Assembly (NCBI GenBank): GCA_031270785.1
Contig: JAISWM010000113.1
Span: 1-46,817, forward strand
Direction of reading: 5' to 3'
Length of the DNA: 46,817 nt
Source: Oscillospiraceae bacterium
GTDB lineage: Bacteria > Bacillota > Clostridia > Oscillospirales > Acutalibacteraceae
Under the pieces are notes generated by a model that did not search any database, had not been told where the DNA came from, and worked only from the letters and a program-made list of their open reading frames with translations. Positions 189-46,730 of the stretch are shown in pieces (the stretch's first letter is position 1; every line of letters begins with the position of its first letter). Both the position numbers and the translations under genes were made by a program.

Positions 189-215
189 AAATAAATTGAG
201 GAGTATTTTTTAAAA

Positions 216-629: not shown

Positions 630-632
630 TTA

Positions 633-710
633 CCATCGAAAAGTATCTAATTTTTTACTACTTTTTCCCCGCTGTAAGCGGGGAAAGCGCAAAAATAAAA
701 TTTATATATA
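633..710 (-). repeat. Diverged family E-like hairpin element
   Basis: GAAAAGTATCTAATTTTTTACTAC-TTTTCCCCGCTGTAAGCGGGGAAAG-CGCAAAAATAAAATTTATA aligns to the reverse complement of the 105-bp E unit. Confidence 0.5.
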
Positions 711-747
711 AAGTTTTGGTTATTCCCGCTGTGTGGGGGAAAGCGCA

Positions 748-827
748 AAAATTAATTGATAATATTTTTTCCCCCCGCCGATTCGCGGGGGTGAAAGAAA
801 GAATTTCAACTATTTTGAGACACGGCC
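748..827 (+). mobile_element. MITE family B copy (left terminus truncated)
   Basis: AAATTAATTGATAATATTTTTTCCCCCCGCCGATTCGCGGGGGTGAAAGAAAGAATTTCAACTATTTTGAGACACGGCC. Confidence 0.8.
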
Positions 828-905
828 CACGAGCTTGCGGAAAAAGCGCAGAAATAAAATTCATAATTAAGATTTGATGTGTATAGTTAAAAGTGGAGGT
901 AAGTT

Positions 906-3509
906 ATGGCTGAAGCGTCTCCTATGATGAGCCAATATTTAAATATTAAGGAAAAATATCAAGATAGTATCTTGTTCTTCAGACTTGGTGATTTTTATGA
1001 AATGTTCTTTGACGATGCTAAATTAGTGTCTGAAGAACTTGACCTGACTTTAACCGGTAAAGATTATGGCCAAAAAGAAAGGGCGCCTATGTGCGGTATT
1101 CCTTATCATAGTTGTGAGGCATATATTGCAAGGCTTATTGCAAAAGGATATAAAGTTGCAATATGCGACCAAGTTGAAAATCCCGCTCAAACCAAAGGGC
1201 TTGTCAGAAGGGATGTAGTTAGAGTTATCACTCCGGGTACTGTTGTGGAGGACAGTATGCTTGAAGAAGGCAGAAATAATTTTATATGCTGCGTATATAG
1301 TTTGGAAGAATCCGCCGGCATTTGTTTTTGCGACGTATCCACGGGTGAACTTAAAACTACTAGGCTTAGCGGCGATGATGTGCTTATAAAACTTAAAAAT
1401 GAACTTGGCAGGTTTTGCCCCCGAGAAATTATTTTTGGCGGAAACAGTTCGTATTTTGGTCCTATCAAAAAATTTTCTATTGACAGGCTCGGTGTCAAAG
1501 CAGAAGAATTTGAAAAACAAAAATTTGATATTGATACATGCAAAAAATATATTTTAAAATATTTAGATAAAAACAGTATTAAAGGTTTTGAAATTAACGA
1601 TTACATCGAGGTTGTAAAAGCTGTTGGCGCGCTTATTTCGTATATTGAATATACTCAAAAAAAAGGCGTTGAAAGACTGCACAATATTGAGTTTTACAGC
1701 CAAAACCAATATATGGGATTAGGCCTTAATACAATGAGAAATCTTGAAATAGTAGAAACCATGAGAAATAAAGAAAAAAGAGGTTCTCTCCTTTGGGTTC
1801 TTGACAAAACTAAAACCGCTATGGGCAAGCGTTTGCTAAGGAGTTGGCTTGAAAGGCCGCTTGTCAGGTACGAAGAAATATTAAAAAGGCAAGAAGGAGT
1901 AGAAGAGCTTTTTTCTGATATTATTTTTAGAGAATCTTTATCGGAAGTTATGGCAAAGGTTAGAGATATCGGCAGATTGATGACAAGAATTATGTATGGT
2001 TTCGCCGCGGGCAGAGAGTTTAAGGCCCTTTCTAGCACTATATCTAATTTGCCGAAAATTAAAAAAGCTTTATCTAAAGCGGAATCTACTATTCTTAAAG
2101 ACATTTACGGGAATATTGATGAACTTCAAGACGTATTCCAAATTATTGAAGAATCCATCACAGAAAATCCTCCCGCTACTTTTAAAGAGGGCGGCATCAT
2201 AAAGGATGGTTACAGCGAGGAGGTTGACAGCTTTCGCAAAAACATGAACGGCGGCAAAGATATAATATTAAATGTTGAACGCGAAGAACGCAAAAAAACA
2301 GGTATCCCCAAACTTAAAGTAGGGTACAATAAAGTTTTCGGGTACTACATAGAAGTAACTAATTCATATAAGCATCTTGCGCCTGAATATTACATAAGAA
2401 AGCAAACTTTAGCAAACTGCGAACGATATATTACAAAAGAACTTAAAGATTTGGAAATACGTATTCTTGGAGCTAAAGATAAACTTAAAGAAATAGAATA
2501 TTCTATTTTTGAAGAAATAAGGCTTAAAGTTGCGGGGCAAATTAAACGTATTGAAAGAACTTCCGCTATGTTGGCTGTTCTTGACGTGCTTTTGTCTTTG
2601 GCTACGGTTGCCGCCAAAAATAATTATATTAAACCTATAATAAGCCGCGAAAAAAATATCATAATCAAAGAAAGCAGGCACCCTGTCGTTGAAGTATTAT
2701 TAGATGGCGCTCCTTTCGTGCCCAATAATGCCGCGCTTGATAACAGTGATCATACTGTCGCTGTTATTACAGGGCCTAATATGGCCGGTAAATCTACGTA
2801 TATGAGGCAAATTGCTTTAATTGTTCTTATGGCTCAAATAGGCAGTTTCGTCCCGGCGGGGCAAGCTGAAATCGGAATAGTCGATAATATTTTTACCCGT
2901 ATTGGCGCTTCGGACGATTTAACTTCCGGCCAATCTACTTTTATGGTAGAAATGAATGAAGTAGCCCACATTGTAAACAACGCCACGAAAGACAGTTTAC
3001 TGATTTTTGACGAAATCGGGCGCGGAACCTCCACTTTTGACGGTATGAGTATTGCAAGAGCCGTACTTGAATACGTGGCTGATAAAAATAAGCTTGGGGC
3101 TAAAACTCTTTTTGCTACCCATTACCATGAATTAACTTCCATGAGTGAATTTTTCCCCAATGTAAAAAATTATAATGTCGCCGTTAAAAAAAACGGTGAT
3201 GATATTATATTTTTAAGAAGAATTGTGCCAGGCGGCACAGATGATAGTTATGGCATAGAAGTTGCCAAACTTTCCGGCATTCCGGATTGGATTATTAATA
3301 GGGCTAAAAAAATTTTAAATGATATAGAAAAAAACAAAACCGATGATATACAGCATGTTCATAGTGAAAATATTAATGCAGTTCCTTCTGATTTTAGTGA
3401 TGAAATTACCCGCGTTGCTAATAAACTTAAAAATTTAGACGTTAGCGTTCTTACGCCGATAGAGTCTATGAATATACTGTTTGATTTAGTTAAATTAGTT
3501 AACAATTAG
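906..3509 (+). CDS. mutS: DNA mismatch repair protein MutS
   Basis: 867 aa. N-terminal SPMMSQYLNIKEKY, Walker A GPNMAGKSTYMRQ, STFMVEM and LIFDEIGRGTSTFDG motifs. GGAGG lies 6 nt upstream of the ATG. Confidence 0.97.
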   Translation: MAEASPMMSQYLNIKEKYQDSILFFRLGDFYEMFFDDAKLVSEELDLTLTGKDYGQKERAPMCGIPYHSCEAYIARLIAKGYKVAICDQVENPAQTKGLVRRDVVRVITPGTVVEDSMLEEGRNNFICCVYSLEESAGICFCDVSTGELKTTRLSGDDVLIKLKNELGRFCPREIIFGGNSSYFGPIKKFSIDRLGVKAEEFEKQKFDIDTCKKYILKYLDKNSIKGFEINDYIEVVKAVGALISYIEYTQKKGVERLHNIEFYSQNQYMGLGLNTMRNLEIVETMRNKEKRGSLLWVLDKTKTAMGKRLLRSWLERPLVRYEEILKRQEGVEELFSDIIFRESLSEVMAKVRDIGRLMTRIMYGFAAGREFKALSSTISNLPKIKKALSKAESTILKDIYGNIDELQDVFQIIEESITENPPATFKEGGIIKDGYSEEVDSFRKNMNGGKDIILNVEREERKKTGIPKLKVGYNKVFGYYIEVTNSYKHLAPEYYIRKQTLANCERYITKELKDLEIRILGAKDKLKEIEYSIFEEIRLKVAGQIKRIERTSAMLAVLDVLLSLATVAAKNNYIKPIISREKNIIIKESRHPVVEVLLDGAPFVPNNAALDNSDHTVAVITGPNMAGKSTYMRQIALIVLMAQIGSFVPAGQAEIGIVDNIFTRIGASDDLTSGQSTFMVEMNEVAHIVNNATKDSLLIFDEIGRGTSTFDGMSIARAVLEYVADKNKLGAKTLFATHYHELTSMSEFFPNVKNYNVAVKKNGDDIIFLRRIVPGGTDDSYGIEVAKLSGIPDWIINRAKKILNDIEKNKTDDIQHVHSENINAVPSDFSDEITRVANKLKNLDVSVLTPIESMNILFDLVKLVNN

Positions 3510-3534
3510 GTTGTGGATCAAATTAATTGATAAT

Positions 3535-3773
3535 AGACCTGTCCGTAAATCTCACAGAGCGCAAACTATCGAAAAATGCGTCACTTAAAAAATGGCTTTG
3601 CATCAAAATTTCCCGGGAAGTATCTTCATATGCCGTCGTCGATTTGGTAGTGGTCCAAATTAATTGATAATATCTTCCCCCCCCGCCATAGGCGGGGGGA
3701 AAAAGAAAAAATTTCAACTATTTTGGGACATGACCCAGATTTTAATTGCAATCTGTAAAATTTACGGACAGGT
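3535..3773 (+). mobile_element. MITE family C copy interrupted by a family B copy
   Basis: Termini AGACCTGTCCGTAAAT...ATTTACGGACAGGT. The C body is 3535-3645 plus 3737-3773. Confidence 0.8.
3646..3735 (+). mobile_element. MITE family B copy nested inside C
   Basis: GGTAGTGGTCCAAATTAATTGATAATATC...CAACTATTTTGGGACATGACC. Confidence 0.85.
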
Positions 3774-3856
3774 ATAATATCTTCCCCCCGCCATAGGCGG
3801 GGGGAAAGAAGGGATTTCAACTATTTTGAGACATGACCCAGATTTTAATTTAGAAA

Positions 3857-3973
3857 TATAGCTGTTTCGTTTGAAAAGTGTCTGATTTTTATAATTTTCT
3901 CCCGGCCGACGGCGGGGAGAAAGTACACGGATAAATTTACTTTTGAGAACTGTTTTAAATCGTAACAGCTATA
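3857..3973 (+). mobile_element. MITE family A copy
   Basis: TATAGCTGTTTCG...CGTAACAGCTATA, 117 bp. Confidence 0.9.
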
Positions 3974-3985
3974 GTTTAAACTTCT

Positions 3986-4026
3986 GCGGGGGAAAAAACA
4001 ACAATGCCACTGTTTCAAAAGGTTTG
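3986..4026 (+). repeat. Family D right-arm fragment
   Basis: GCGGGGGAAAAAACAACAATGCCACTGTTTCAAAAGGTTT matches the D right arm GGGGAAACAAAAATGTCACTGTTTCAAAAGGTTTTT. Confidence 0.55.
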
Positions 4027-4117
4027 GTGGATGGTGCCAATTAGTTGATAATATCTTCCCCCCCGCCATAGGCGGGGGGGAGAAAGAAGGGATTTCAACT
4101 ATTTTGGGACATGCCCC
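4026..4117 (+). mobile_element. MITE family B copy
   Basis: GGTGGATGGTGCCAATTAGTTGATAATATCTTCCCCCCCGCCATAGGCGGGGGGG...CAACTATTTTGGGACATGCCCC. The left boundary is uncertain by ~8 nt. Confidence 0.75.
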
Positions 4118-4156
4118 AGATTTTAATTGCAATCTGTAAAATTTACGGACAGGTCT
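4118..4156 (+). repeat. Family C right-end fragment
   Basis: AGATTTTAATTGCAATCTGTAAAATTTACGGACAGGTCT. Confidence 0.8.
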
Positions 4157-4219
4157 AATATCTCCCCCCCCACCATAGGCGGGGGGGAAGAAGGGATTTC
4201 AACTATTTTGGGACATGGC
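4157..4219 (+). mobile_element. MITE family B, right two-thirds
   Basis: AATATCTCCCCCCCCACCATAGGCGGGGGGGAAGAAGGGATTTCAACTATTTTGGGACATGGC. Confidence 0.75.
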
Positions 4220-4245
4220 AAACAATTAAGTTGGAGCTTAAATTT

Positions 4246-6081
4246 ATGAATAGAATTAATATCCTTGATAAACATGTTTCAGAGCTTATTGCTGCGGGGG
4301 AAGTGGTAGATCGTCCCGCTTCCGTCGTTAAAGAGCTTTTGGAAAATTCTATAGATGCCCTTGCAAATAAAATATCTATAGAAATAAAAAGAGGCGGCAT
4401 TAAGTATATAAAAATATCTGATAACGGCACCGGAATATATAGCGCTGACATAAAAAAAGCGTTTTTAAGGCATGCCACCAGTAAAGTTAAAGGTGAGCAG
4501 GATTTAGACTCCATCAAAACTTTAGGATTTAGAGGCGAAGCTTTGTCTTCTATTAGCAGCGTATCTAAATTAGAACTTATTACCAAACACCTTGATGAAG
4601 ATACAGGCACTAAATACATTATTATCGGCGGGGAAGAAAAAAGTCTTGAAGAATGCGGCTGCCCTCAAGGAACTACTTTTATTGTAAGGGATATTTTTTT
4701 TAATACTCCCGCAAGAATGAAATTTTTAAAAACGGATGTATCTGAAGGCAACACCATATGTGCTTTGATTGATAATATAGCTGTTTCGCATCCTAAAGTG
4801 TCATTTAAGTTGGTTCGTGACGGCAAAGAAATTTTAAATACGCCGGGGGACGGTAAAATTTCCTCTTGTATATATTCGGTTTTGGGGAAAAATTTTTTTG
4901 AAGAGTTGATTCCTATTGAATATAAACTGGATAACGTGCAAATTTTCGGATATATCAGTAAGCCGTCTTGTTCAAGGCCCGGCAGAAATATGCAGCATTT
5001 TTTTGTTAATTCCAGGTACGTTAAAACCAAAACAGCCGCTTTTGCGCTGGAAGAAGGCTTTAAAGGATGCATAACGGTTGGTAAACACCCTTCATGTGTT
5101 ATTTATATTAATGTCCCTTATAATTTTGTTGATGTTAATGTTCACCCTTCTAAAACAGAAGTTAGATTTGCAAACGAAAGATATATTTTTGACGCCGTAT
5201 ATTATGGCGTGAAATCATCGATTACAAAAAATGATCGTCAAAGCATAAATTTTTCCGGCAATAGCAAAAACATTGAATATGAAAAAGGCTCCTCAAAAAT
5301 TGAACATAAAATTATAGCCGAAAATAAAGTAAAACCTGAGTTTATAGGAACTGATTTCAGTGGTTTAAACCGCAAATTATATGAAAAAGAGCCAAGTTAT
5401 AATACCTCTAAAATTAAAGAAACAAAACCTACCAATTACATACCCGTTTCTGGGCAAGAACCTATTAAAAATATTCTTCGTGAAGAACCGAATTTATTTA
5501 ATAAAATACCAAAATTAAAAATATTAGGCGAAATATTTAAATGTTATATCGTAGTTCAAAACAATTACGATAATATTATATTAATCGATAAACACGCCGC
5601 TCATGAAAGAATTATATTTGAAAAATTAAAGTCTTCCGGGAGCGGCAAATGTGAATCTCAAATATTGCTAGATCCTATTATTATAAATTTGAACAAAATA
5701 GAATATTCAGGTATTATTGAAAATTTAGAGATTTTTAAAAATTCGGGATATGACTTAGAAGATTTTGGAGTGGGTAACATCTTGGTAAGAAGTATACCAA
5801 TGTATACAGATGTTTCGGAAACTCAAAATTTTGTTGTTGAAATCTCAAATTACGTTTTAAAAAACAAAAAAGATTTAAATACTTCTTATTTAGATTGGCT
5901 TTATCATAACATTGCTTGCAGGTCGGCTATAAAAGGCGGAAATATCAGCAGTAATGAAGAAATTTCAGATTTAGTAGGTAAACTTATAAATAATCCGAAT
6001 ATAAGATATTGCCCGCACGGCAGACCAATATATTTTTCCTTAAGTAAAAAAGATATAGATAAAAAATTCAGCAGGACGTGA
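4246..6081 (+). CDS. mutL: DNA mismatch repair protein MutL
   Basis: GHKL ATPase motifs LIAAGEVVDRPASVVKELLENSIDA and DNGTGI. The ATG at 4246 with GGAG 9 nt upstream is preferred over the TTG at 4231 that opens the tracked ORF. Confidence 0.95.
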   Translation: MNRINILDKHVSELIAAGEVVDRPASVVKELLENSIDALANKISIEIKRGGIKYIKISDNGTGIYSADIKKAFLRHATSKVKGEQDLDSIKTLGFRGEALSSISSVSKLELITKHLDEDTGTKYIIIGGEEKSLEECGCPQGTTFIVRDIFFNTPARMKFLKTDVSEGNTICALIDNIAVSHPKVSFKLVRDGKEILNTPGDGKISSCIYSVLGKNFFEELIPIEYKLDNVQIFGYISKPSCSRPGRNMQHFFVNSRYVKTKTAAFALEEGFKGCITVGKHPSCVIYINVPYNFVDVNVHPSKTEVRFANERYIFDAVYYGVKSSITKNDRQSINFSGNSKNIEYEKGSSKIEHKIIAENKVKPEFIGTDFSGLNRKLYEKEPSYNTSKIKETKPTNYIPVSGQEPIKNILREEPNLFNKIPKLKILGEIFKCYIVVQNNYDNIILIDKHAAHERIIFEKLKSSGSGKCESQILLDPIIINLNKIEYSGIIENLEIFKNSGYDLEDFGVGNILVRSIPMYTDVSETQNFVVEISNYVLKNKKDLNTSYLDWLYHNIACRSAIKGGNISSNEEISDLVGKLINNPNIRYCPHGRPIYFSLSKKDIDKKFSRT

Positions 6082-6085
6082 TTTT

Positions 6086-7042
6086 TTGAAATCAGATAAA
6101 ATACCTGTTATTTGTGTAGTAGGGCCTACTGCTTCCGGCAAGACGGACTTAGCCGTAAATATTGCAAAAAAAATGAGCGGCGAAATAATTTCGGCTGATT
6201 CTATGCAGATATATAAGGAATTTAATATATCAACCGCTAAACCGACTTTAAAACAGATGTGTGGCATCAAACATCATTGCATTGATATTGTTTCTGTTAA
6301 AGAAAATTTTAGTGTGGCAAAATATGTTAGTTTTGCCGAAAAAATTATAAAAGATATTTTTTCAATAGGTAAAATACCGATACTTTGCGGCGGAACCGGA
6401 TTATATATTGATTCTCTTATAAAAAATATACCTTTCGAGAAAGGGAAAACAAATATTTCGATAAGAAATAGAATTATTAATTATATAAATGTGAATAATG
6501 CGGGATATTTTTTTGATAAACTAAAAAAAATTGACCCTAGTAGCGCAAAAAAAATAAATATTCACGACCATAAAAGGATTTGCAGAGCTATAGAATTTTA
6601 TTATACAAATGGCTATCCGATATATAGGCAAGTTGAAAACTCTTTAAAATCCAAATCGTGCTATAATGTGTGCAAAATAGGGCTTAATTTTAAAGACCGC
6701 AATATACTTTATGATAGAATAAATAAGAGAGTGGATTTCATGGTTAAAAATGGTATTTTAGATGAAATTGCTTCGATTAAAGATATAGGGGATACAGCTA
6801 AATTTTCTATAGGATATAAAGAGCTATTGCCTTTTATTAACGCCGAAAGCTCTTTAAAAGAGTGCACAGAAAGACTTAAAATGGAAACCAGGAGATACGC
6901 TAAACGCCAAATCACTTGGTTTAAAAGAGACCTTAGCACTAAGTGGTTTAACGCGGATGAATATGAAAATGTTTCTAACCTGTTTTGCAATGTTCAAAAG
7001 TGCATTTTAGATAGTGGAATTTTAGGTCATGTCTCAAAATAG
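6086..7042 (+). CDS. miaA: tRNA dimethylallyltransferase MiaA
   Basis: P-loop VVGPTASGKT and GGTGLY motif, with a TTG start. The last six codons including the stop (GGTCATGTCTCAAAATAG) are the terminus of a family B element. Confidence 0.9.
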   Translation: MKSDKIPVICVVGPTASGKTDLAVNIAKKMSGEIISADSMQIYKEFNISTAKPTLKQMCGIKHHCIDIVSVKENFSVAKYVSFAEKIIKDIFSIGKIPILCGGTGLYIDSLIKNIPFEKGKTNISIRNRIINYINVNNAGYFFDKLKKIDPSSAKKINIHDHKRICRAIEFYYTNGYPIYRQVENSLKSKSCYNVCKIGLNFKDRNILYDRINKRVDFMVKNGILDEIASIKDIGDTAKFSIGYKELLPFINAESSLKECTERLKMETRRYAKRQITWFKRDLSTKWFNADEYENVSNLFCNVQKCILDSGILGHVSK

Positions 7043-7095
7043 TTGAAATCCCTTCTTTCACCCCCGCTGCAGGCTGGGAAAAGATATTACAAACC
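7025..7095 (-). mobile_element. MITE family B copy (truncated at the C junction), overlapping the miaA 3-prime end
   Basis: GGTCATGTCTCAAAATAGTTGAAATCCCTTCTTTCACCCCCGCTGCAGGCTGGGAAAAGATATTAC. Confidence 0.8.
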
Positions 7096-7339
7096 AGACC
7101 TGTCCGTAAATCTCACAGATCGCAAACTATCGAAAAAATGCATCACTTAAAAAATGGCTTTGCATCAAAATCTCCCGGGAAGTATCTTCATACGCCGTCG
7201 TCGATTTGGTAGTAGTCCAAATTAATTGATAAAATATCTTTCACCCCCGACTATGGCGGGGGTGAAAGAAGGGATTTCAACTATTTTATGGCGCGACCGT
7301 CGATTTTGATTGCAATCTGTAAAATTTACGAACAGGTCT
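7096..7339 (+). mobile_element. MITE family C copy carrying a nested B
   Basis: AGACCTGTCCGTAAATCTCACAG...TTTACGAACAGGTCT. The body is interrupted at 7208-7298. Confidence 0.85.
7208..7298 (+). mobile_element. MITE family B copy nested in C, with target-site duplication
   Basis: GGTAGTAGTCCAAATT...TTTTATGGCGCGACC, flanked by GTCGATTT at 7200-7207 and 7299-7306. The intact C copy at 33605 has a single GTCGATTT. Confidence 0.9.
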
Positions 7340-7341
7340 AC

Positions 7342-7457
7342 TATAGCTGTTTCGTTTGAGAAGCGTCTGATTTTTATGACTTTCTCCCAGCCGACGGCTG
7401 GGAGAAAGTACACGGATAAATTTACTTTTGAGGACTGTTTTAAATCATAACAGCATA
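7342..7457 (+). mobile_element. MITE family A copy (right terminus degenerate)
   Basis: TATAGCTGTTTCGTTTGAGAAGCG...AAATCATAACAGCATA. Confidence 0.85.
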
Positions 7458-7499
7458 ATTTAACCCGCAACCTAAATCGCTACATAAGGAATAGATTTT

Positions 7500-8732
7500 A
7501 TGAAACGTTCTTCAATTAAAAAAACTTTTTTATGGGTAATATTTATTTTGATATTTTTTTATTCTTTACATATTATTTATAAAAAAATTTATATAAACGT
7601 ATCTACTGAAACAATAACGCAAGTAACTATAGATGACGTTGTTGATTGTAAGTCTATAATTATTAGAAATGAAGATATAATATCAAGCGAAAATCAAATT
7701 TTTTTAAAATACTTTGTAGATAACGGCGAAAGGATATCAAAGGGGGATATTGTCGCTAAATGTTTTGATAGCCAAGAAGAAGCGATGTATAGCGCGGAAC
7801 TCAGCGATATAAAGAATGAACTTGAAACTATTCAAAAAGTCAGCTTAAATGATAATTTCGGCAGAGATTTAAGTTCTATAAGTAAAGACATAAATAACGA
7901 AATTAGAAATATTTTTTTAAAATGCGAGTACCTTGACATATATAAAAACAGAAAAAAAATAACAAACCTCTTGAATGAAAGGCAAAACGCGCTGGGAAAC
8001 GGAAATATATTTTCTAAGAGAGTGGAATATTTAAAATCCAGAAAATCAGAACTTGAAAAAATGATAAATTCTCAAACCCCAAATATATATTCTCCGTATG
8101 CGGGTTATTTTGTAAGCAAAACAGACGGATATGAAAAAACCGTAAATTATGAAGACATTAAAAAATTTGATTATAATGATATGATTTATGAAAATATTAT
8201 AAAAAATAAAGCGGATGAAAAAAACGCTATAGGTAAAATAATAAAATCTACCAAGTGGTATGTGCTTTGCTATGTTTCTGCCGGTGAAATATGTAATATA
8301 CAAGAAGGTATGGAGGTTAGCGCAAAATTTGCGTGCGAAAACGATTACATACCGGCTAAAGTTGAAAGAATAGTTAAAAATGAAGATGAAAATGATAGTT
8401 TAGTCATACTTTCCTGCGAATATATGAATAATAGATTATGTTTTACACGGCTTGAAAATATTTCCGTTAAAAAAACGTCTTATTCCGGTTTTAAAATTCC
8501 TAAAGAAGCTTTGCGATTTTACGAAGACAGTGGAGCCGCATATAAAGGAATATACGTAAAAAATGGTGCTAACTTGATCTTTAAAAAGATAAATATTTTA
8601 TATTCCGAGAATAATTTTATTGTAGCTGAAACTTTTAAAAATAGCGGCGGTAACGATGAAAAACCTTTAGCAAATGGCGATCTGGTGGTAGTTAACGGCA
8701 AAAATCTCTATGATGGGAAATGTGTGTTATAG
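7500..8732 (+). CDS. HlyD-like / membrane-fusion-like protein (N-terminal TM anchor, coiled coil)
   Basis: 410 aa. It has an N-terminal hydrophobic helix, a lipoyl-like segment GERISKGDIVAKCFD, a central coiled-coil-like region and a C-terminal beta-rich part. Family assignment is by pattern only. Confidence 0.45.
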   Translation: MKRSSIKKTFLWVIFILIFFYSLHIIYKKIYINVSTETITQVTIDDVVDCKSIIIRNEDIISSENQIFLKYFVDNGERISKGDIVAKCFDSQEEAMYSAELSDIKNELETIQKVSLNDNFGRDLSSISKDINNEIRNIFLKCEYLDIYKNRKKITNLLNERQNALGNGNIFSKRVEYLKSRKSELEKMINSQTPNIYSPYAGYFVSKTDGYEKTVNYEDIKKFDYNDMIYENIIKNKADEKNAIGKIIKSTKWYVLCYVSAGEICNIQEGMEVSAKFACENDYIPAKVERIVKNEDENDSLVILSCEYMNNRLCFTRLENISVKKTSYSGFKIPKEALRFYEDSGAAYKGIYVKNGANLIFKKINILYSENNFIVAETFKNSGGNDEKPLANGDLVVVNGKNLYDGKCVL

Positions 8733-8753
8733 CAAGAATTATTCAAAAATATC

Positions 8754-8840
8754 GGCTGTAGCCAAAATTAGTTGATAATATCTTTTTTCCTTGCCGATTT
8801 GCAGTGGGCGAAGAAGTTTTCCTCATTTTGAGACATAGCC
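8754..8840 (+). mobile_element. MITE family B copy (degenerate hairpin) with 8-bp TSD
   Basis: GGCTGTAGCCAAAATTAGTTGATAAT...TTTTGAGACATAGCC, flanked by AAAATATC at 8746-8753 and 8841-8848. Confidence 0.85.
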
Positions 8841-8889
8841 AAAATATCCTTGGAAAATTATGCTAACTCCAATTATAAATATCAGTTTG

Positions 8890-9065
8890 TATAGCAAAGA
8901 CCATTTAAAAACGTGTTATTATTTACATTCCACCCCCGCCACAGGCGGGGGGGAAGCTACATACAAAGCCATTTAAAATGTGGCATTATTTACATGTTTT
9001 TTCTCCCGCCGAAAGCCAGGGAGAAAAAACAAAAATGTCACTGTTTTGAAAAGGTTTTTACTATA
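8890..9065 (+). mobile_element. Family D element, dimeric (two hairpin modules)
   Basis: TATAGCAAAGACCATTTAAAAACGTGTTATTATTTACAT, then hairpin 1, a second left arm, hairpin 2, and AACAAAAATGTCACTGTTTTGAAAAGGTTTTTACTATA. Termini are inverted (TATAGCAAAxACC / GGTTTTTACTATA). Confidence 0.7.
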
Positions 9066-9177
9066 GCTATTTTGTTTGAAAAGCATCTGATTTTATAACT
9101 TTCTCCCGGCCGTCGGCCGGGAGAAAGTACACGGATAAATTTACTTTTGAGAGCTGTTTTAAATCGTAACAGTTATA
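9062..9177 (+). mobile_element. MITE family A copy sharing TATA with the end of D
   Basis: TATAGCTATTTTGTTTGAAAAGCA...CGTAACAGTTATA. Confidence 0.85.
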
Positions 9178-9183
9178 TATCTC

Positions 9184-9212
9184 TTGACTTATTACTTTTA
9201 ACATGTTATAAT
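9184..9212 (+). promoter_or_regulatory. SigA-type promoter of the deformylase gene
   Basis: TTGACT (9184-9189), a 17-nt spacer, then TGtTATAAT (-10 at 9207-9212, extended TG). Confidence 0.6.
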
Positions 9213-9245
9213 TAAATTAACAAAAAATTATATGGAGTGTTAAAA

Positions 9246-9878
9246 ATGAAAAAATTTCTTTCAATAATTTTTAGTCTTTCTTTGCTGCTTACTTCGGAAT
9301 TCAGTACCGGTGCAAAAGTGCTGGATGTGGTTAAATCTGACGACCCCATACTCAAAGAGTGTTGCCTTGAAGTTACGGGTTTTAATGAAGATCTAAGAAA
9401 ATTAATTGCTAACATGTGTGATACCATGAATAAATACGACGGTGTAGGACTCGCTGCGCCGCAAGTTGGGGAACGGAAGTGCGTCTTTGTAGTGAAATAT
9501 GGCAAAAAAGTAACCGAATATGTTAACGCGAAAATACTTAGTGAAGAAGGAGAACAAATTTCAACAGAAGGATGTATTTCCCTCCCCGGTTTATGGGGAG
9601 AAGTTAAAAGGCCCACATGCATAAGTGGAACAGCGTTTGATAAAAATGGGGAAAAATTCGACTTTGAGGCTGAAGGCGAGGAGGCACGAATTATATGCCA
9701 TGAATTCGACCATACGAGAGGAGTATTATTTACAAAAATTGCAAAACGTACTTATACAACCACACAAATCATTGTCAAGAATGTAGCTTGGGCGGTGGCG
9801 GTAGCTGGGGTATTAGCAATACTTGGGGGGTTGGCCAGACATTTTGCCTTCTCAAAGCCAAGCCCCAATCATGCGTAA
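9246..9878 (+). CDS. def: Peptide deformylase-like protein with N-terminal signal-like peptide and C-terminal TM helix
   Basis: PDF motifs GVGLAAPQVG, EGCISLPG and HEFDH. GGAG lies 8 nt upstream of the ATG at 9246 (the tracked ORF opens at GTG 9237). N-terminus is MKKFLSIIFSLSLLLTSEFSTGA and the C-terminus contains VAWAVAVAGVLAILGGLA. Confidence 0.85.
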   Translation: MKKFLSIIFSLSLLLTSEFSTGAKVLDVVKSDDPILKECCLEVTGFNEDLRKLIANMCDTMNKYDGVGLAAPQVGERKCVFVVKYGKKVTEYVNAKILSEEGEQISTEGCISLPGLWGEVKRPTCISGTAFDKNGEKFDFEAEGEEARIICHEFDHTRGVLFTKIAKRTYTTTQIIVKNVAWAVAVAGVLAILGGLARHFAFSKPSPNHA

Positions 9879-9906
9879 ACTTCCAATAAAGTGTAAAATA
9901 AAAACA

Positions 9907-9998
9907 CACTTTAGAAACGTGTTATTATTTACATGTTTTTCCCCCGCCTTCGGCGGGGGGGGAGAAAGAAGAAGTTTCAATTATTTTGAGACATAACC
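9907..9998 (+). repeat. Chimeric element: D left arm joined to B right arm at the shared hairpin
   Basis: CTTTAGAAACGTGTTATTATTTACATG (D arm), then TTTTTCCCCCGCCTTCGGCGGGGGGGGAGAAAG, then AAGAAGTTTCAATTATTTTGAGACATAACC (B arm). Confidence 0.7.
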
Positions 9999-10035
9999 GC
10001 CGATTTTGATTGCAATCTGTAAAGTTTACGGACAG
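9999..10035 (+). repeat. Family C right-end fragment
   Basis: GCCGATTTTGATTGCAATCTGTAAAGTTTACGGACAG, cut short by the adjacent A copy. Confidence 0.75.
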
Positions 10036-10036
10036 C

Positions 10037-10153
10037 TATAGCTGTTACGATTTAAAACAGCCCTTAAAAGTAAATTTATCTGTGTACTTTCTCCCAGCCG
10101 TCGGCTGGGAGAAAGTCATAAAAATCAGACGCTTTTCAAACGTAACAGCTATA
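10037..10153 (-). mobile_element. MITE family A copy (reverse orientation)
   Basis: TATAGCTGTTACGATTTAAAACAG...TTTTCAAACGTAACAGCTATA. Confidence 0.9.
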
Positions 10154-10191
10154 TAATATTTATAATTGAAATTAGTATGATACAATGATTC

Positions 10192-10279
10192 GGTAGTGGT
10201 CCAAATTAATTGATAATATCTTTCCTCCCCGCCTGTGGCGGGGGGGAAGAATGGATTTCAACTATTTTATGGCGCGACC
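10192..10279 (+). mobile_element. MITE family B copy, full length, with 8-bp TSD
   Basis: GGTAGTGGTCCAAATTAATTGATAATATC...CAACTATTTTATGGCGCGACC, flanked by AATGATTC at 10184-10191 and 10280-10287. Confidence 0.92.
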
Positions 10280-10305
10280 AATGATTCAGAGGTGTGTGAT
10301 AGACA

Positions 10306-10917
10306 TTGAATATATTTAGTAAATTATTTAACAAAAGTAAAAATATTAGCAGTATTAATTATATGGTGGCGGGATTAGGCAATCCGGGGCTTAGATATGA
10401 AAACACAAGACATAATGCGGGGTTTTTAGTTGTTGACTATATTTGTAAACAGAATAATATAAAATTAAATTTAAATAAATTTGACGGAGTATACGGATAC
10501 GGATATTTAAGCGGAAGTAAAATTTTGTTTTTAAAACCGCAAACATTTATGAATAAAAGTGGAGAATGTATTTCAAAAATGATGTCTTATTATAAAATAC
10601 CTCCTGAAAAAGTAATTTTGATTTTTGATGATATTTTATTACCGGCAGGAAAAATAAGGGTAAGAAGAAACGGTACTCACGGCGGGCATAATGGAGTAAG
10701 AAATATAATAGATTTATCATCCAGTAGTCAATTCCCCAGAGTAAAAGTAGGTGTTGGGCAAAAGCCCAATGAAGATTGGGACTTAGCTGACTGGGTTTTA
10801 TCTAAATTTTCAAAAGAGGAAAGCGATGCCATAGAAGGCGCTGTGAAAAGCGCAGAAAAAACGGTAAATCTTATTATAGACGGTAATATAGATCAGGCAA
10901 TGTCACTTTATAATTAA
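10306..10917 (+). CDS. pth: Peptidyl-tRNA hydrolase
   Basis: GLGNPGLRYENTRHNAGF and HGGHNG motifs. A TTG start at 10306 follows GAGGTG. An alternative ATG at 10363 would give the canonical MVAGLGNPG N-terminus. Confidence 0.9.
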   Translation: MNIFSKLFNKSKNISSINYMVAGLGNPGLRYENTRHNAGFLVVDYICKQNNIKLNLNKFDGVYGYGYLSGSKILFLKPQTFMNKSGECISKMMSYYKIPPEKVILIFDDILLPAGKIRVRRNGTHGGHNGVRNIIDLSSSSQFPRVKVGVGQKPNEDWDLADWVLSKFSKEESDAIEGAVKSAEKTVNLIIDGNIDQAMSLYN

Positions 10918-11096
10918 ATTGCTTTCAGCATTAAGGCAAAAGATTTGATTTCGACTAAAACCGACTAAAATACAAAAAATATCAACGTTTAATTGTACCT
11001 AATTTTATTTTTTATATCTTCTGTGTTTGAAAATAGCTATATGAGTAAATAATCGCCCCACTATCAAGCGGGAGCGATAATTGCCAAAATTTATAC

Positions 11097-11240
11097 TATA
11101 GCTGTTCCGCTTTACAATAGACCATAGAAATTATGTATAACTATTGTTCTTGAAAAGGGTACACAGGCAAGCTTTTCCCCCACAGGCTTAGCGGGAAAAA
11201 ACTTCTAAAATTGGGACTTTTTTAAAGCGGAACAGCTATA
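11097..11240. mobile_element. Family A-related variant (144 bp)
   Basis: TATAGCTGTTCCGCTTTAC...TAAAGCGGAACAGCTATA. It has the same termini as A, a different interior and a weaker central palindrome. Confidence 0.65.
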
Positions 11241-11655
11241 ATTTGGACCATCGTCTATTTTTACGTACTTGGTGTAGCAGACTTGTTCGAAAAGGGGGAT
11301 ATATTTTTCGAAGTTGCATATTATGCATGAAATTGTGCTTGATTTAATTGTGAATTTTCGTTTTTTTAAAAGAACTTTGCCTTATCATTTGCTTTGATAC
11401 ACTACCGGACATTGAAATTTGCTATAAGTTCGTGGGGAATGTAAATCTACCGTATATGTCAAGAAAGCTGAAGCATCAAATGTTAAAATCTTTCGGCAGG
11501 GAAGAAAATCAAAAAGAAAGGTGCGTCTCTGCAGGTTAAAATAAAGTGGTATTAATAATTGCAGGGTCACAGCAAACAAAAAACACTTCAAAACCAAAGG
11601 TAAGGTTTCAAAATGTTTCAATCTTCGGCGTCAGTTCCCTTAACTAACGCCACAC

Positions 11656-11732
11656 TGGTCGAGGCAGCGGGACTCGAACCCACGGCTTCTACGTCCCGAA
11701 CGTAGCACTCTACCAAACTGAGCTATGCCTCG
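11656..11732 (-). tRNA. tRNA-Pro (anticodon CGG), CCA encoded
   Basis: The reverse complement CGAGGCATAGCTCAGTTTGGTAGAGTGCTACGTTCGGGACGTAGAAGCCGTGGGTTCGAGTCCCGCTGCCTCGACCA folds as a 77-nt cloverleaf. Acceptor is CGAGGCA/TGCCTCG, anticodon loop TTCGGGA, T-loop TTCGAGT. Confidence 0.92.
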
Positions 11733-11740
11733 GCAATATA

Positions 11741-11829
11741 GGTCGTGTCCCAAAATAGTTGAAATCCCTTCTTCTCCCCCGCCATAGGCGGGGGGGAAAA
11801 GATATTATCAACAAATTTGGCCCACAACC
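11741..11829 (-). mobile_element. MITE family B copy inserted in the tRNA-Pro leader, with 9-bp TSD
   Basis: GGTCGTGTCCCAAAATAGTTGAAATCC...ATCAACAAATTTGGCCCACAACC, flanked by GGCAATATA at 11732-11740 and 11830-11838. Confidence 0.9.
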
Positions 11830-11850
11830 GGCAATATAAACACATTTGGA

Positions 11851-11879
11851 ATTTTACTGCTTTGTGAATGAAAAATCAA
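11851..11879 (-). promoter_or_regulatory. Candidate promoter of tRNA-Pro
   Basis: On the minus strand: TTGATT (11879-11874), a 17-nt spacer, then TAAAAT (11856-11851). Without the B insertion this would sit ~20 nt upstream of the tRNA 5-prime end. Confidence 0.5.
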
Positions 11880-12124
11880 CCAATTTAAGTCTTTCCGGTA
11901 GAACAAACGCATGAAAACGTGATCAATCAGCTTTTAATAAAATTTTTGCTCCCGCCCGCCTATCCCCGATGCAGAGTATGCGGGGCATTACGGCGGGCTT
12001 GCATGCTTCCCTCGAAAACACACGCTCGCAAAAATCAATGAATACACAGCCTAGAAGGTCGGGGAATTAAACCCAATTTAGATTAAATTACCATGCGCTC
12101 TGGGCTTTAAATAAGTAAATCACC

Positions 12125-14670: not shown

Positions 14671-14775
14671 TATAGCAAAAACCATTTTTAAAGCGTGGTA
14701 TTATTTGCGGTTCTTTCCCCCGCTTACGCGGGGGAAAGAACAAAAATGTCACTGTTTTAAAAAGTTTTTACTATA
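14671..14775 (+). mobile_element. Family D element
   Basis: TATAGCAAAAACCATTTTTAAAGCGTGGTATTATTTGCGG, then TTCTTTCCCCCGCTTACGCGGGGGAAAGAA, then CAAAAATGTCACTGTTTTAAAAAGTTTTTACTATA. Confidence 0.8.
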
Positions 14776-14835
14776 TCCGTTACTTTCCCCGCAGGCTCGC
14801 GGGGGAAGCAAATCAAACACATATCAGATTTTAAT
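14776..14835. repeat. Hairpin module plus ATCTGATATGT-type arm
   Basis: CTTTCCCCGCAGGCTCGCGGGGGAAG followed by CAAATCAAACACATATCAGATTTTAATTTTAGAAATA. The arm recurs in reverse at 36921-36945 and 36992-37012. Confidence 0.5.
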
Positions 14836-27073: not shown

Positions 27074-27704
27074 TATAGCTGATACACTTTAAAAAAATAA
27101 ATTTGCTCATGCGCCCTCTCCCAGCCGCTGGCGGGTGGGAGAGCAGTAAAAAATTAGATATTTTTCAAGAGCATTAGCTATAGCTATTACACTTAAAAAA
27201 AATAAATTTGCTCATGCGGTCTCTCCCCGCCGCAGGCGGGTGGGAGAGCAGCAAAAAATTAGATATTTTTCAAGGGCGTTAGCTATAAGCTTATGCACTT
27301 AAAAAAAATAAATTTGCTCATGCGGTCTCTCCCCGCCGCAGGCGGGGAAAGAGCAGTAAAAAATCAGATATTTTTCAAGGACGTTAGCTATAGCTGATGC
27401 ACTTAAAAAAAATAAATTTGATCATGCGGTCTCTCCCCGCCGCTGGCGGGGGGGGAGTAGTAAAAAATTAGATATTTTTCAAGGACGTTAGCTATAGCTG
27501 ATGCACTTAAAAAAAATAAATTTGCTTATGCTGTCTCTCCCCGCCGCTGGCGGGGGGGGGAGTAGTAAAAAATTAGATATTTTTCAAAGGCGTTAGCTAT
27601 AGCTGATACACTTTAAAAAATAAGTTTGCTCATGCGGTCTCTCCCCGCCGCAGGCGGGGAAAGAGCAGTAAAAAATTAGATATTTTTCAAGGGCGTTAGC
27701 TATA
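27074..27704 (+). repeat. Head-to-tail tandem array of six family E units (103-105 bp each)
   Basis: Units start at 27074, 27179, 27284, 27389, 27493 and 27598. Each unit reads TATAGCTGATGCACTTAAAAAAAATAAATTTGCTCATGCGGTCTCTCCCCGCCGCAGGCGGGGxxAGAGCAGTAAAAAATTAGATATTTTTCAAGGxCGTTAGC. Junctions share AGCTATAGCT and there are no spacers. Confidence 0.92.
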
Positions 27705-33170: not shown

Positions 33171-33254
33171 GCATAAAAAAATATTTTTTTGAAATTTAAT
33201 TTGAATTAAGTTTAATTCCTCGAGGCTTGTCTCGTATATATAGCCAAAATCATT

Positions 33255-33371
33255 TATAGCTGTTTCGTTTGAAAAGCGTCTGATTTTTATAACTTTTTCT
33301 TAGCCGACGGCGGGGAGAAAGTACACGGATAAATTTACTTTCGAGGACTGTTTTAAATCGTAACAGCTATA
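33255..33371 (+). mobile_element. MITE family A copy
   Basis: TATAGCTGTTTCGTTTGAAAAGCG...CGTAACAGCTATA. Confidence 0.9.
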
Positions 33372-33458
33372 GAAACATGGTATCATTTGCGGTTTTCCCC
33401 GCCGACTCGCGGGGGGAAAGCGTAAATAATACCACGTTTTTAAATGATTTTTGTTATA
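33372..33458. repeat. Family D-type palindromic module (D left arm on both sides of the hairpin)
   Basis: ATGGTATCATTTGCGG, then TTTTCCCCGCCGACTCGCGGGGGGAAAG, then CGTAAATAATACCACGTTTTTAAATGATTTTTGTTATA. Confidence 0.65.
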
Positions 33459-33482: not shown

Positions 33483-33583
33483 TATAGCTGCTGCGCTTAA
33501 AAAACGTCTAATTTTTTATCGTACTCTCCCCCCCGCCGGTGGCGGGGTAAAAGAAGAAATTTTAACTATTTTGAGACATAATC
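33483..33583 (+). repeat. Chimeric element: E-like left arm joined to B right arm at the hairpin
   Basis: TATAGCTGCTGCGCTTAAAAAACGTCTAATTTTTTATCGTACTCTCCCCCCCGCCGGTGGCGGGGTAAAAGAAGAAATTTTAACTATTTTGAGACATAATC. Confidence 0.7.
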
Positions 33584-33604: not shown

Positions 33605-33747
33605 AGACCTGTCCGTAAATCTCACAGAGCGCAGACTATCGAAAAATGCATCACTTAAAAAATGGCTTTGCATCAAAATCTCCTTGGAGTATCTTCATAC
33701 GCCGTCGTCGATTTTGATTGCAATCTGTAAAATTTACGGACAGGTCT
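33605..33747 (+). mobile_element. MITE family C, intact 143-bp copy
   Basis: 16-17 bp inverted termini AGACCTGTCCGTAAATC...AATTTACGGACAGGTCT, flanked by AAT on both sides. Confidence 0.88.
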
Positions 33748-41107: not shown

Positions 41108-41309
41108 GGCCATGTCTCAAAATATAGCTGTTATGATTTAAAACAGTCCTCAAAAGTAAATTTATCCGTGTACTTTCTCCCAGCCGTCGGCTGGGAGAAA
41201 GTTATAGAAATTAGACGCTTTTCAAACGAAACAGCTATAGTTGAAATTCCTTCTTCCCCCCCGCCTACGGCGGGGGGGAAGATATTATCAATTAATTTGG
41301 ACCACTACC
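41108..41309 (-). mobile_element. MITE family B copy split by a family A insertion at its internal TA
   Basis: GGCCATGTCTCAAAATA (41108-41124), then A, then TAGTTGAAATTCCTTCTTCCCCCCCGCCTACGGCGGGGGGGAAGATATTATCAATTAATTTGGACCACTACC (41238-41309). Confidence 0.88.
41123..41239 (-). mobile_element. MITE family A copy nested in B with a TA duplication
   Basis: TA at 41123-41124 and 41238-41239 flanks the core TAGCTGTTATG...AACAGCTA. The B consensus has a single TA at this position (CAAAATAGTTG). Confidence 0.9.
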
Positions 41310-42344: not shown

Positions 42345-42400
42345 TATATTTTTTTGAAAATGAATATGATTTATTCAATGTGCTTTTTCGACCTTTACAC

Positions 42401-42482
42401 AAAATTCGAGGCAGTTTCGATAATGTTCCCCCCCGCCATAGGCGGGGGGAAAAGATATTATCAACTAATTTGACCCACTACC
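42401..42482 (-). mobile_element. Family B-prime variant (B left arm and hairpin, alternative second arm AAAATTCGAGGCAGTTTCGATAATGTT)
   Basis: AAAATTCGAGGCAGTTTCGATAATGTTCCCCCCCGCCATAGGCGGGGGGAAAAGATATTATCAACTAATTTGACCCACTACC. Confidence 0.75.
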
Positions 42483-42572
42483 GCATCATAATAACACTAA
42501 ATTAATGAAATGTCGATATATTTTTTTGAAAATTAATATGATTTGTTTAGTGTGCTTTTTCGGCCTTTACAC

Positions 42573-42655
42573 AAAATTCGAGGCAGTCTCGATAATGTTC
42601 CCCCCCCGCCATAGGCGGGGGGAAAAGATATTATCAATTAATTTGGACTACTACC
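42573..42655 (-). mobile_element. Family B-prime variant copy
   Basis: Near-identical to 42401-42482. Confidence 0.75.
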
Positions 42656-42735
42656 AAAATTTGAGGCAATCTCGATAATGTTCCCCCCAGCCATAGGTGG
42701 GGGGAGATATTATCAACCAATTTGACCCACTATCC
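42656..42735 (-). mobile_element. Family B-prime variant copy
   Basis: AAAATTTGAGGCAATCTCGATAATGTTCCCCCCAGCCATAGGTGGGGGGAGATATTATCAACCAATTTGACCCACTATCC. Confidence 0.7.
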
Positions 42736-42810
42736 ACGTTTTTAAATGGTTTTGGCTATATATTTGAAAATGAATATAATTTATTTAATGTGCTTTTTCG
42801 ACCTTTACAC

Positions 42811-42893
42811 AAAATTCGGGGCAGTCTCGATAATGTTTCCCCCCCGCCATAGGCGTGGGGAAAAGATATTATCAATTAATTTGGACTACTACC
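42811..42893 (-). mobile_element. Family B-prime variant copy
   Basis: AAAATTCGGGGCAGTCTCGATAATGTTTCCCCCCCGCCATAGGCGTGGGGAAAAGATATTATCAATTAATTTGGACTACTACC. Confidence 0.75.
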
Positions 42894-42975
42894 AAAATTC
42901 GGGGCAGTTTCGATAATGTTCCCCCCGCAAGTCGGCGTGAAAAAAAATATTATCAACCAATTTGGCCCACTATCC
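42894..42975 (-). mobile_element. Family B-prime variant copy (degenerate hairpin)
   Basis: AAAATTCGGGGCAGTTTCGATAATGTTCCCCCCGCAAGTCGGCGTGAAAAAAAATATTATCAACCAATTTGGCCCACTATCC. Confidence 0.65.
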
Positions 42976-43272: not shown

Positions 43273-43380
43273 GGTGGTGATCCAAATTAATTGATAATAG
43301 ACCTGTCCGTAAATCTCACAGAGCGCAAACTGTCGAAAAATGTATCACTTAAAAAATGGCTTTGCATCAAAATCTCCTTG
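43273..43380 (+). repeat. B left end (43273-43298) followed by the left part of C (43299-43380)
   Basis: GGTGGTGATCCAAATTAATTGATAAT then AGACCTGTCCGTAAATCTCACAGAGCGCAAACTGTCG...CATCAAAATCTCCTTG. This is the same B/C junction as at 3534/3535. Confidence 0.75.
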
Positions 43381-43473
43381 TGTCTCAAAATAATTTAAAT
43401 TTCTTCTTCCCCCCCGCCTTCGGGGAAAAAAGAAACGTAAATAATACCACGTTTCTAAATGATTTTAGCTATA
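43381..43473. repeat. Chimeric element: B right arm (reverse) joined to a D left arm at a half hairpin
   Basis: TGTCTCAAAATAATTTAAATTTCTTCTTCCCCCCCGCCTTCGG, then GGAAAAAAGAAACGTAAATAATACCACGTTTCTAAATGATTTTAGCTATA. Confidence 0.65.
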
Positions 43474-45721: not shown

Positions 45722-45769
45722 AATATGGTTGCGGCCCAAATATTCTTTTTTCCCCCCGCCTTTTTTTGG

Positions 45770-45863
45770 GGTTGTGGGTCAAATTAATTGATAATATCTC
45801 TTCCCCCCCCCGCCGAAGGCGGGGGGAGAAAGAAAGAATTTAAACTTATTTTGAGACATAACC
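45770..45863 (+). mobile_element. MITE family B copy nested in another B, with 8-bp TSD
   Basis: GGTTGTGGGTCAAATTAATTGATAATATC...AAACTTATTTTGAGACATAACC, flanked by TTTTTTGG at 45762-45769 and 45864-45871. Confidence 0.88.
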
Positions 45864-45896
45864 TTTTTTGGGGGGAAAAAAGAAAAAATTTTCAAC

Positions 45897-46013
45897 TATA
45901 GCTGTTTTGTTTGAAAAGCGTCTGATTTCTATAACTTTCTCCCAGCCGACGGCTGGGAGAAAGTACACGAATAAATTTACTTTTGAGAACTGTTTTAAAT
46001 CGTAACAGCTATA
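45897..46013 (+). mobile_element. MITE family A copy nested in B with a TA duplication
   Basis: TTTTCAAC-TA, then TAGCTGTTTTG...AACAGCTA, then TA-TTTTGGGACACGCCCC. The B consensus reads CAACTATTTTG with one TA. Confidence 0.9.
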
Positions 46014-46027
46014 TTTTGGGACACGCC

Positions 46028-46067
46028 CCGATTTTGATTGCAATCTGTAAAGTTTACGGACGGGTCT
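46028..46067 (+). repeat. Family C right-end fragment
   Basis: CGATTTTGATTGCAATCTGTAAAGTTTACGGACGGGTCT. Confidence 0.75.
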
Positions 46068-46641: not shown

Positions 46642-46730
46642 GGTTATGTTTCAAAATAATTGAAACTTTTTCTTTTTCACCCCGCCGTCGGCGGGGTGAA
46701 AGATATTATCAGCTAATTTGACCCACAACC
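46642..46730 (-). mobile_element. MITE family B copy (second of three in tandem)
   Basis: GGTTATGTTTCAAAATAATTGAAACTTTTTCTTTTTCACCCCGCCGTCGGCGGGGTGAAAGATATTATCAGCTAATTTGACCCACAACC. Confidence 0.88.

Follow-up and report, generated by a model that had tools for sequence, protein, structure and literature searches.

A hybrid of two miniature transposons joined within a common GC-rich hairpin in an Oscillospiraceae genome

Results

Gene content of the locus

The window, that is, the whole stretch of 46,817 nucleotides analysed here, is a chromosome segment of an uncultured bacterium, with 36% GC. It carries the housekeeping genes ylbF, mutS, mutL, miaA, def, pth, murA, ppk1, rluD, lspA and rny, as well as tRNA-Pro and a lone 5S rRNA gene. 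The gene order ylbF-mutS-mutL-miaA and the best named matches of MutS point to Clostridia/Oscillospiraceae. Repeats of the kind described below, miniature transposons (MITEs), make up 16% of the window and lie nearly all within intergenic spacers. A hairpin-binding protein of the RAYT or TnpA-Y1 kind, or another nucleic-acid-binding protein, had been proposed as a partner of these hairpins from the sequence alone. The window ORFs that were scanned include no transposase, Y1-domain proteins among them, and no obvious nucleic-acid-binding gene was found in the window.

The 5S rRNA gene (43110-43226, + strand) has no 23S rRNA gene upstream and is bordered by MITE clusters on both sides. An ORF of 3701 aa (15063-26168, - strand) has no Pfam match and contains short internal tandem repeats at 18936-19047. 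An ORF for a MazE-type antitoxin (26751-27071) is directly followed by six tandem MITEs of family T, not by a toxin gene, and the PemK toxin gene of relatives sits elsewhere in the neighbourhood. At 46409-46546 (+ strand) lies a gene for SCIFF (TIGR03973, 73 bits), a ranthipeptide precursor of 45 aa with six cysteines. The gene for the radical-SAM maturase, the partner of SCIFF, usually follows the precursor gene; here the contig end beyond SCIFF is a run of family A copies. Synteny with the related L004 is broken at 8733-9236 and 39562-40132, and both breakpoints fall in MITE clusters. Relatives carry hlyD-sepF-divIVA-ileS-lspA-rluD-ppk all in the same orientation; the window has lspA-rluD-(extra ORF)-ppk inverted and 30 kb away, and lacks sepF-divIVA-ileS.

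Families of elements with a common hairpin core

The exact pattern CCCCGCC-N3-8-GGCGGGG is found 25 times in the window, versus 0 expected from shuffled sequences, and relaxed searches of the window yield about 60 GC-rich hairpin centres. These hairpins are the centres of MITEs of 90-120 bp. The core consists of a pyrimidine run, GCC, a loop, GGC and a purine run, and is flanked by YTT/AAR tracts. Its polarity is strict in all families, the pyrimidine arm always preceding the purine arm (5' to 3'): the window yields 122 overlapping matches to CCCC...GGGG and none to GGGG...CCCC. Hairpins occur in every class of spacer, including divergent promoter spacers, according to a manual tally from the ORF list and the core positions. 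Five of them lie between mutS and mutL, genes that form a tight operon in relatives.

Families were defined by clustering the arms adjoining each core, and arms were annotated with blastn-short. MAFFT alignment of whole family A elements mis-registered the C/G runs, and therefore ungapped, hairpin-anchored alignments were used instead. Family A (about 90 bp) consists of the A1 arm GGTAGTGGTCCAAATTAATTGATAATATCTT, the core and the A2 arm (outer to inner GGTCATGTCTCAAAATAGTTGAAATCCCTTCTT), with inverted ends GGTnnTG...CAnnACC; A2 corresponds to the 'B-right' arm of the sequence-only reading. The canonical copy at 10192..10279 (+) has A1, core and A2 within an 8-bp duplication, AATGATTC. In two family A elements the first base coincides with the G of a TAG stop codon, that of mutS (3507-3509) and that of SCIFF (46544-46546), so that the terminal GG of the element overlaps the stop. 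Family C (113 bp) runs from TAGCTGTTTCG... through the core CCCAGCC-GAC-GGCTGGG to ...CGTAACAGCTA; its terminal inverted repeats are TAGCTGTT...AACAGCTA and its hairpins have 14-bp stems. The copy at 10039..10151 (-) has these repeats, the core CCCAGCC-GTC-GGCTGGG and TA on both sides. Family D (about 105 bp) has the layout TATAGCAAAGACC...core...GGTTTTTACTATA, and its canonical copy at 14671..14775 (+) is a near-perfect full-length hairpin. As ssDNA, the stretch 14672-14785, which extends 10 nt beyond the element, folds with -28.4 kcal/mol (z = -7.2). Further types are families T/E, H and I and a 'G' arm. Six family T MITEs stand in tandem at 27074..27704 (+) with a period of 104-105 and cores CCCCGCC-GCW-GGCGGGG. 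Families D, T/E and H open with a TA-TAG start similar to that of family C. The F element (about 140 bp, TIR ACCTGTCCGTAAAT...ATTTACGGACAGGT) has a small GC palindrome only, without the GC core; intact copies lie at 33607..33745 (+) and 37977-38115.

Arm classification shows that cognate pairs dominate, with A1/A2 in 21 copies (plus three in which A1 is split by F), C1/C2 in 10, T1/T2 in six, D1/D2 in four and H1/H2 in two. The same CCCCGCC...GGCGGGG core, the same pyrimidine/purine flanks and the same polarity are common to families A, D, T/E, I and G. Such strict polarity favours a common origin or an exchange of the core.

Target duplications, empty sites and nesting

Family A copies are flanked by target duplications of 8-9 bp, namely 8 bp in at least four copies and 9 bp in two to three. 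They include the copies at 7208, 10192, 11741, 27882, 39987 and 43640, and AATGATTC, TGAAAAAT, GATGTTTT and GGCAATATA are examples of the duplicated sequence. Family C duplicates TA, as proven by three rejoined host arms: excision of the C copy with one TA exactly restores an A2 arm in two cases and a D1 arm in the third (insertions 41125-41237, 45899-46011 and 33257-33369). A 3-bp duplication was also considered for family C and fails at 45899. The claim that families with different ends share one hairpin core is borne out, and these ends give different duplications (8-9 bp versus TA).

In relatives whose MutS is 81-84% identical, the successive spacers from ylbF through mutS, mutL and miaA to hlyD measure 20, 17, 5 and 13 bp; they contain no cores and show no blastn similarity to any element. 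In the window, elements fill 277 bp between ylbF and mutS, 722 bp between mutS and mutL and 458 bp between miaA and hlyD, versus 20, 17 and 13 bp in relatives. Within the window, the two intact F copies represent the empty sites for an insertion of A into F at 7208..7298 (+), which is flanked by the duplication GTCGATTT and carries a TCA...TGA variant of the stem.

Nesting is frequent. At 3509..3838 (+) there is a three-level nest: F (3536-3773) interrupts the A1 arm of a family A element and itself carries another A (3646-3735); removal of F recreates the A1 arm consensus. The A2 arm of the family A MITE at 41108..41309 (-) is split by the C insertion at 41125-41237. A D1/D1 palindromic element has its left arm split by the C copy at 33257-33369, and the rejoined flanks restore the D1 arm. 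This palindrome had been noticed before as a module at 33372-33458; its D1/D1 nature stands, and its extent is revised to the full element at 33239..33458. In the nest at 45727..46065 (+), a family A element has a second A (45770-45863) inserted in its degenerate core and a C (45899-46011) in its A2 arm, and is followed by an F right end. We considered the core as a preferred target of family A and rejected this idea, for the duplications are ordinary AT-rich sequences and a single event, later duplicated, lies in a core. Nested insertions also underlie the 'new arms' at 3793, 4175 and 7068, and many apparent arm swaps turn out to be nested transpositions with clean target duplications. Given the terminal inverted repeats, the fixed family-specific duplications and the empty sites, these elements are new families of MITEs, selfish DNA of a known kind and not a new system.

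Family A copies also form head-to-tail runs (46537-46817 and 45744-46331) with the separators GAAAAAG/GAAAAAT. One nest, with A inside A and an additional C over about 320 bp, is present as a tandem duplicate, which means that composites were copied as units. The combination of an A element and an F right end is found five times and the F left half in only two of these places. Deletions of the IS26-like adjacent type are expected to break exactly at an element terminus. In two cases of A plus F right end (4026, 45727) the breakpoint coincides exactly with the family A terminus, and the core is accordingly not the sole site of breakage.

Ends and duplication lengths point to the types of transposase that might move the elements. 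The 14-bp TIR consensus of IS6/IS26 is GGTTCTGTTGCAAA, with G1, G2 and G7 (PMC6807381), and most family A termini match it at 9-12 of the 14 positions including these three, against a window background mean of 3.7. IS1 has ends GGnnnTG and duplications of 8-9 bp (PMC10425158), and these features fit family A equally well. Family A would be mobilised by an IS6/IS26-like or an IS1-like type, and family C probably by an IS630-like type, as IS630 is characterised by a 2-bp target duplication with the TA signature (PMC10425158). Families D, T/E and H may go with family C. As no transposase was found among the scanned ORFs of the window, these assignments are drawn from ends and duplication length only. 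The differences between A and C in both respects imply that at least two unrelated mobilisation systems carry the GC hairpin centre.

Hybrids joined within the core

The 92 bp flagged at the outset (9907-9998) are a hybrid of two miniature transposons joined within the common GC-rich hairpin. The complete hybrid (9894..9998) combines a D1-type arm (9894-9936) with an A2 arm (9963-9998), as determined by arm classification and alignment, and its core hairpin at 9941..9962 is CCCCCGCC-TTC-GGCGGGGGGGG. On folding, the core hairpin alone forms and the arms stay unpaired. In the alignment, the left half runs with D1 arms up to the core, inside which the switch occurs. The right half follows A2, the remnant of a duplication and an F right end, like the A-in-F composites. 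This orphan F right end (10002..10035, +) comes directly after the A2 arm, whereas the F left half and A1 are missing, and the A2/F junction at 10002 is identical in the A-in-F composites 3646-3773 and 7208-7337. A second hybrid, at 33483..33583, has a T2/E-type arm, a core at 33528-33547 and an A2 arm. The third, at 43378..43473, has an A2 arm, the degenerate core CCCCCCCGCCTTCGGGG (43409-43425) and an inverted D1 arm. Before it lies an orphaned left half of F (43300-43377), with no right half, the mirror case of the first. The orphaned F halves beside two hybrids indicate deletions that ended in the core. All three chimeras had been named in the sequence-only reading as joined at the G/C palindrome, and arm classification and alignment agree with it.

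Altogether, a single core stands between full non-cognate arms at 9949 (D1|A2), 33538 (T2-like|A2), 43417 (A2|D1) and 37025 (I|A2). Further non-cognate pairs are a weak T1-like or unique arm|A2 (30591) and D2|I (36956), while G|A1 occurs five times in one tandem cluster. The five G|core|A1 units (42383..42975) are a local amplification within and beside a 172-bp tandem repeat, and what had been taken for a B-prime variant with a new second arm (42401-42975) is this amplified unit. Insertion of elements next to each other cannot yield a single core with two full foreign arms and is thereby excluded for the hybrids, which answers the question whether the arm combinations merely reflect adjacent insertions. 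Family C, with its distinct core (CCCAGCC/GGCTGGG), contributes none of its 10 copies to hybrids. This is consistent with a dependence on homology, in numbers too small for significance. Each type of core-joined hybrid is seen once, and we therefore infer recombination from its products; for the named hybrids, recombination at the core that they share is the best account.

Conservation of stem, loop and arms

The three parts of the elements differ in conservation. In the CCCCGCC-type cores, the inner 7-bp stem shows four changes in 308 cells. Family A arms have pairwise identities of 0.87-0.90 (about 88%), and the loops of 17 family A copies are 0.31 identical, versus 0.27 for random sequences; loops indeed vary freely while the stem is kept, as claimed earlier. 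The arm difference from consensus amounts to 18%, a value probably inflated by end effects, and the pairwise identities were relied on instead.

Covariation was assessed with shuffles. Across families it exceeds all 500 shuffles, whichever measure is taken, and mainly reflects a few family-level differences, e.g. one position that is C.G or A.T. The signal is weak among the CCCCGCC-type cores: seven pairs have double changes versus 3.7 expected (reached by 0 of 500 shuffles), and the number of pair types, a robust measure, is not significant (13 versus 10.9; 42 of 500 shuffles). The informative pairs in these cores are the outer run boundaries only, and the lengths of the C-run and the G-run are uncorrelated (rho 0.11, p 0.57). 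Four family C copies deviate at the variable position of the stem, one of them with a compensating change. Compensatory changes had been proposed for the TCA...TGA copies, and these double variants do exist. The family A MITE at 46642..46730 (-), which lies in a tandem run of A copies, has the perfect stem TTTCACCCCGCC-GTC-GGCGGGGTGAAA, and the copy at 7208-7298 has one inner mismatch. The A2-side T variant is present in about seven family A copies, and only these two also have the matching A1-side A. The stem is thus strongly conserved, and the evidence for compensatory evolution is modest.

Distribution beyond the window

One NCBI MAG, Oscillospiraceae bacterium (locus tag LBR79), to which the window probably belongs, has translated family A copies on 15 or more further contigs, and almost none occur outside it among 1.84 billion representative proteins. 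An index-free profile search found about 30 MITE-derived ORFs; a word-indexed protein search with a MITE-derived ORF returned the query alone. About 30 annotated 'hypothetical proteins' from other contigs of this MAG (P0124-P0154, 45-120 aa) prove to be translated A, C, F and T elements, so that MITE read-through makes up part of its gene catalogue. A JGI contig, L014 (IMG 3300042606, 35% GC), from a metagenome that probably represents the same population as the MAG, has two diverged family A copies at 735-985, between thrS and cmk. In these copies ATATTAACA replaces ATATTATCA, one copy has an 8-9 bp duplication, and the cores are CCCCGCC-ACA-GGCGGGG and a decayed version. Searches with the A2-arm-plus-core pattern gave only chance matches in unrelated GC-rich genomes among species-representative genomes and JGI metagenome contigs, and no matches in viral contigs. 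Comparison of families A and C with plasmids by blastn returned nothing relevant. The known distribution is essentially one MAG and one JGI contig.

Discussion

Origin of the hybrids and constancy of the stem

We consider it probable that the whole picture is explained by MITEs mobilised in trans, with a shared palindromic centre, and by hybrids formed through recombination at the core. Each element consists of two short terminal arms around a GC-rich palindrome, and at least two types of transposase, encoded elsewhere, would mobilise the elements in trans. Mutual insertion accounts for many of the 'new arms'. The core of 17-25 bp is the longest near-identical stretch common to families A, D, T/E and I, and its palindromic nature makes every pair of cores a direct repeat. 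Where neighbours lie about 100 bp apart, slippage, template switching or short-homology recombination from one core to the next could then delete the intervening DNA and leave a single core with arms from two families. The constancy of the stem alongside drifting loops may arise if only copies with an intact hairpin keep propagating; alternatively, the halves of the palindrome may correct each other. Deletion alone does not explain why the same core with the same polarity sits on unrelated termini.

The latter route can be taken further: stems might be kept by mechanics, with quasi-palindrome template switching or mismatch correction maintaining the stem and loop nicking, imprecise repair or inversion scrambling the loop. 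This is compatible with mobilisation in trans and recombination at the core, and we regard it as possible, if short of likely. It would account for a loop that has opposite orientations in two near-identical duplicated blocks (GAA at 45808, TTC at 46122), for the presence of both members of the loop pairs ATA/TAT and GAC/GTC, and for inner stems that are better conserved than the arms expected to bind transposase. However, the C-run and the G-run show no correlation in length, and several changes on one side of the stem have survived, which means that such correction is not efficient past the inner 7 bp.

In a bolder reading, the palindrome would have a function of its own as a portable module. 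As a cruciform or fold-back hinge it would let transposase pair two ends only about 30 bp apart, in IS6-type replicative elements it could also serve as a crossover site, and it would have spread by template switching at the hairpin between MITE families of unrelated transposase superfamilies. We hold this to be unlikely; if true, arms and centre evolve as separate, exchangeable parts.

Two other accounts appear rather more doubtful still, and about equally so. According to the first, each family gained its GC hairpin independently, without exchange between families. The deviating core of family C and the short palindrome of F elements would suit such convergence, and a fold-back centre may benefit any short MITE. 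Nevertheless, families A, D, T/E, I and G agree in core, flanking tracts and polarity, the opposite polarity is absent, and the hybrids demonstrate exchange. According to the second, the host selects the hairpin as an RNA element, such as a terminator, a 3' stabiliser or a processed small RNA, and the arms are incidental. The hairpins are strong, with stems of 14 bp in family C, all are intergenic, and they covary across families. Like intrinsic terminators, the cores have a GC-rich stem, a short loop and an intergenic position. Unlike terminators, they lack a downstream T-tract on either strand where flanks were inspected, and they are present in spacers of operons that remain tight in relatives as well as in the tallied divergent promoter spacers. 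Only one of about 17 cores passes a terminator scan of positions 1-12000, in line with the earlier view that the core is not a standard terminator. An Rfam search of the window returned only 5S rRNA and tRNA-Pro above threshold, sub-threshold matches being at chance level; terminators and known RNA families were discarded as readings. Relatives, moreover, are entirely without the hairpins, and wobble pairs on the sense strand are not in excess (14 T.G versus 23 C.A), so that nothing indicates selection at the RNA level. Of the two forces once proposed to act on the hairpin, recombination is upheld by the core-joined hybrids, and the wobble counts lend no support to RNA-level selection.

It is very unlikely that the hybrids are artefacts of assembly or amplification at the shared palindrome. 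Hairpins promote the formation of chimeras during amplification, the window is a single MAG contig from a metagenome bin, and cores are identical over up to about 20 bases. Yet the k-mers typical of a final assembly are longer than this exact shared sequence, the hybrids lie in coherent, uniquely flanked contexts, e.g. between def and pth, and the orphan F halves fit genuine deletions.

With trans-mobilised MITEs and recombination at their cores as the preferred reading, the window is a compact natural record of miniature transposon evolution, in which the order of nesting, the copying of composites as units and the joining at palindromes can be followed. The invariant stem, the near-random loop and the fixed polarity across different mobilisation signatures suggest that the hairpin matters for propagation. 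The repeats coincide with synteny breaks relative to related genomes. Since the MAG has many 'hypothetical proteins' that are MITE translations, the repeats also matter for binning, assembly and annotation in this lineage.

Comparison with known mobile systems

To our knowledge, neither REPs nor transposition of the IS200/IS605 type make target duplications. Like REPs and REPINs, the elements described here are short and abundant extragenic palindromes able to pair into larger hairpins, and some family A termini contain GTAG (GGTAGTGG). That the cores belong to the REP/REPIN type and are mobilised by a RAYT (Y1/HUH) transposase, as suggested at first, is nonetheless extremely improbable, because the elements are bordered by clean duplications of 8-9 bp or TA, the terminal GTAG is variable (GGTTGTG, GGTCATG, GGTCGCG), no Y1 transposase is present among the window ORFs scanned, and the cores examined have no unpaired GTAG or CGTC tag adjoining the palindrome, whereas a REP is a palindrome of 20-40 bp with such a tag at one end (PMC3733652).

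The elements have much in common with MITEs derived from DDE insertion sequences, including a size of 90-120 bp, the lack of an ORF, terminal inverted repeats, family-specific duplications, a high copy number, an intergenic location and nesting. They differ from them in that no autonomous partner was found in the window and in that families with different mobilisation signatures have the same central palindrome in the same polarity, at which they appear to recombine. What distinguishes these MITE families is an unusually clear modular centre, a shared and recombination-prone hairpin.

The closest behavioural parallel, as an analogy only, is provided by the GC clusters of yeast mitochondria, e.g. 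GC42 (Wu and Hao 2015, PMC4478555), mobile palindromes rich in GC that lie in AT-rich spacers. Their loops take most substitutions while the stems are constrained, and they 'merge and shuffle' into new elements with a common module (PMC4478555). The yeast clusters are organellar and eukaryotic, their mobilising enzyme is unknown and they are devoid of DDE-type terminal repeats, whereas the elements of the window have long AT-rich arms that bear the transposition termini.
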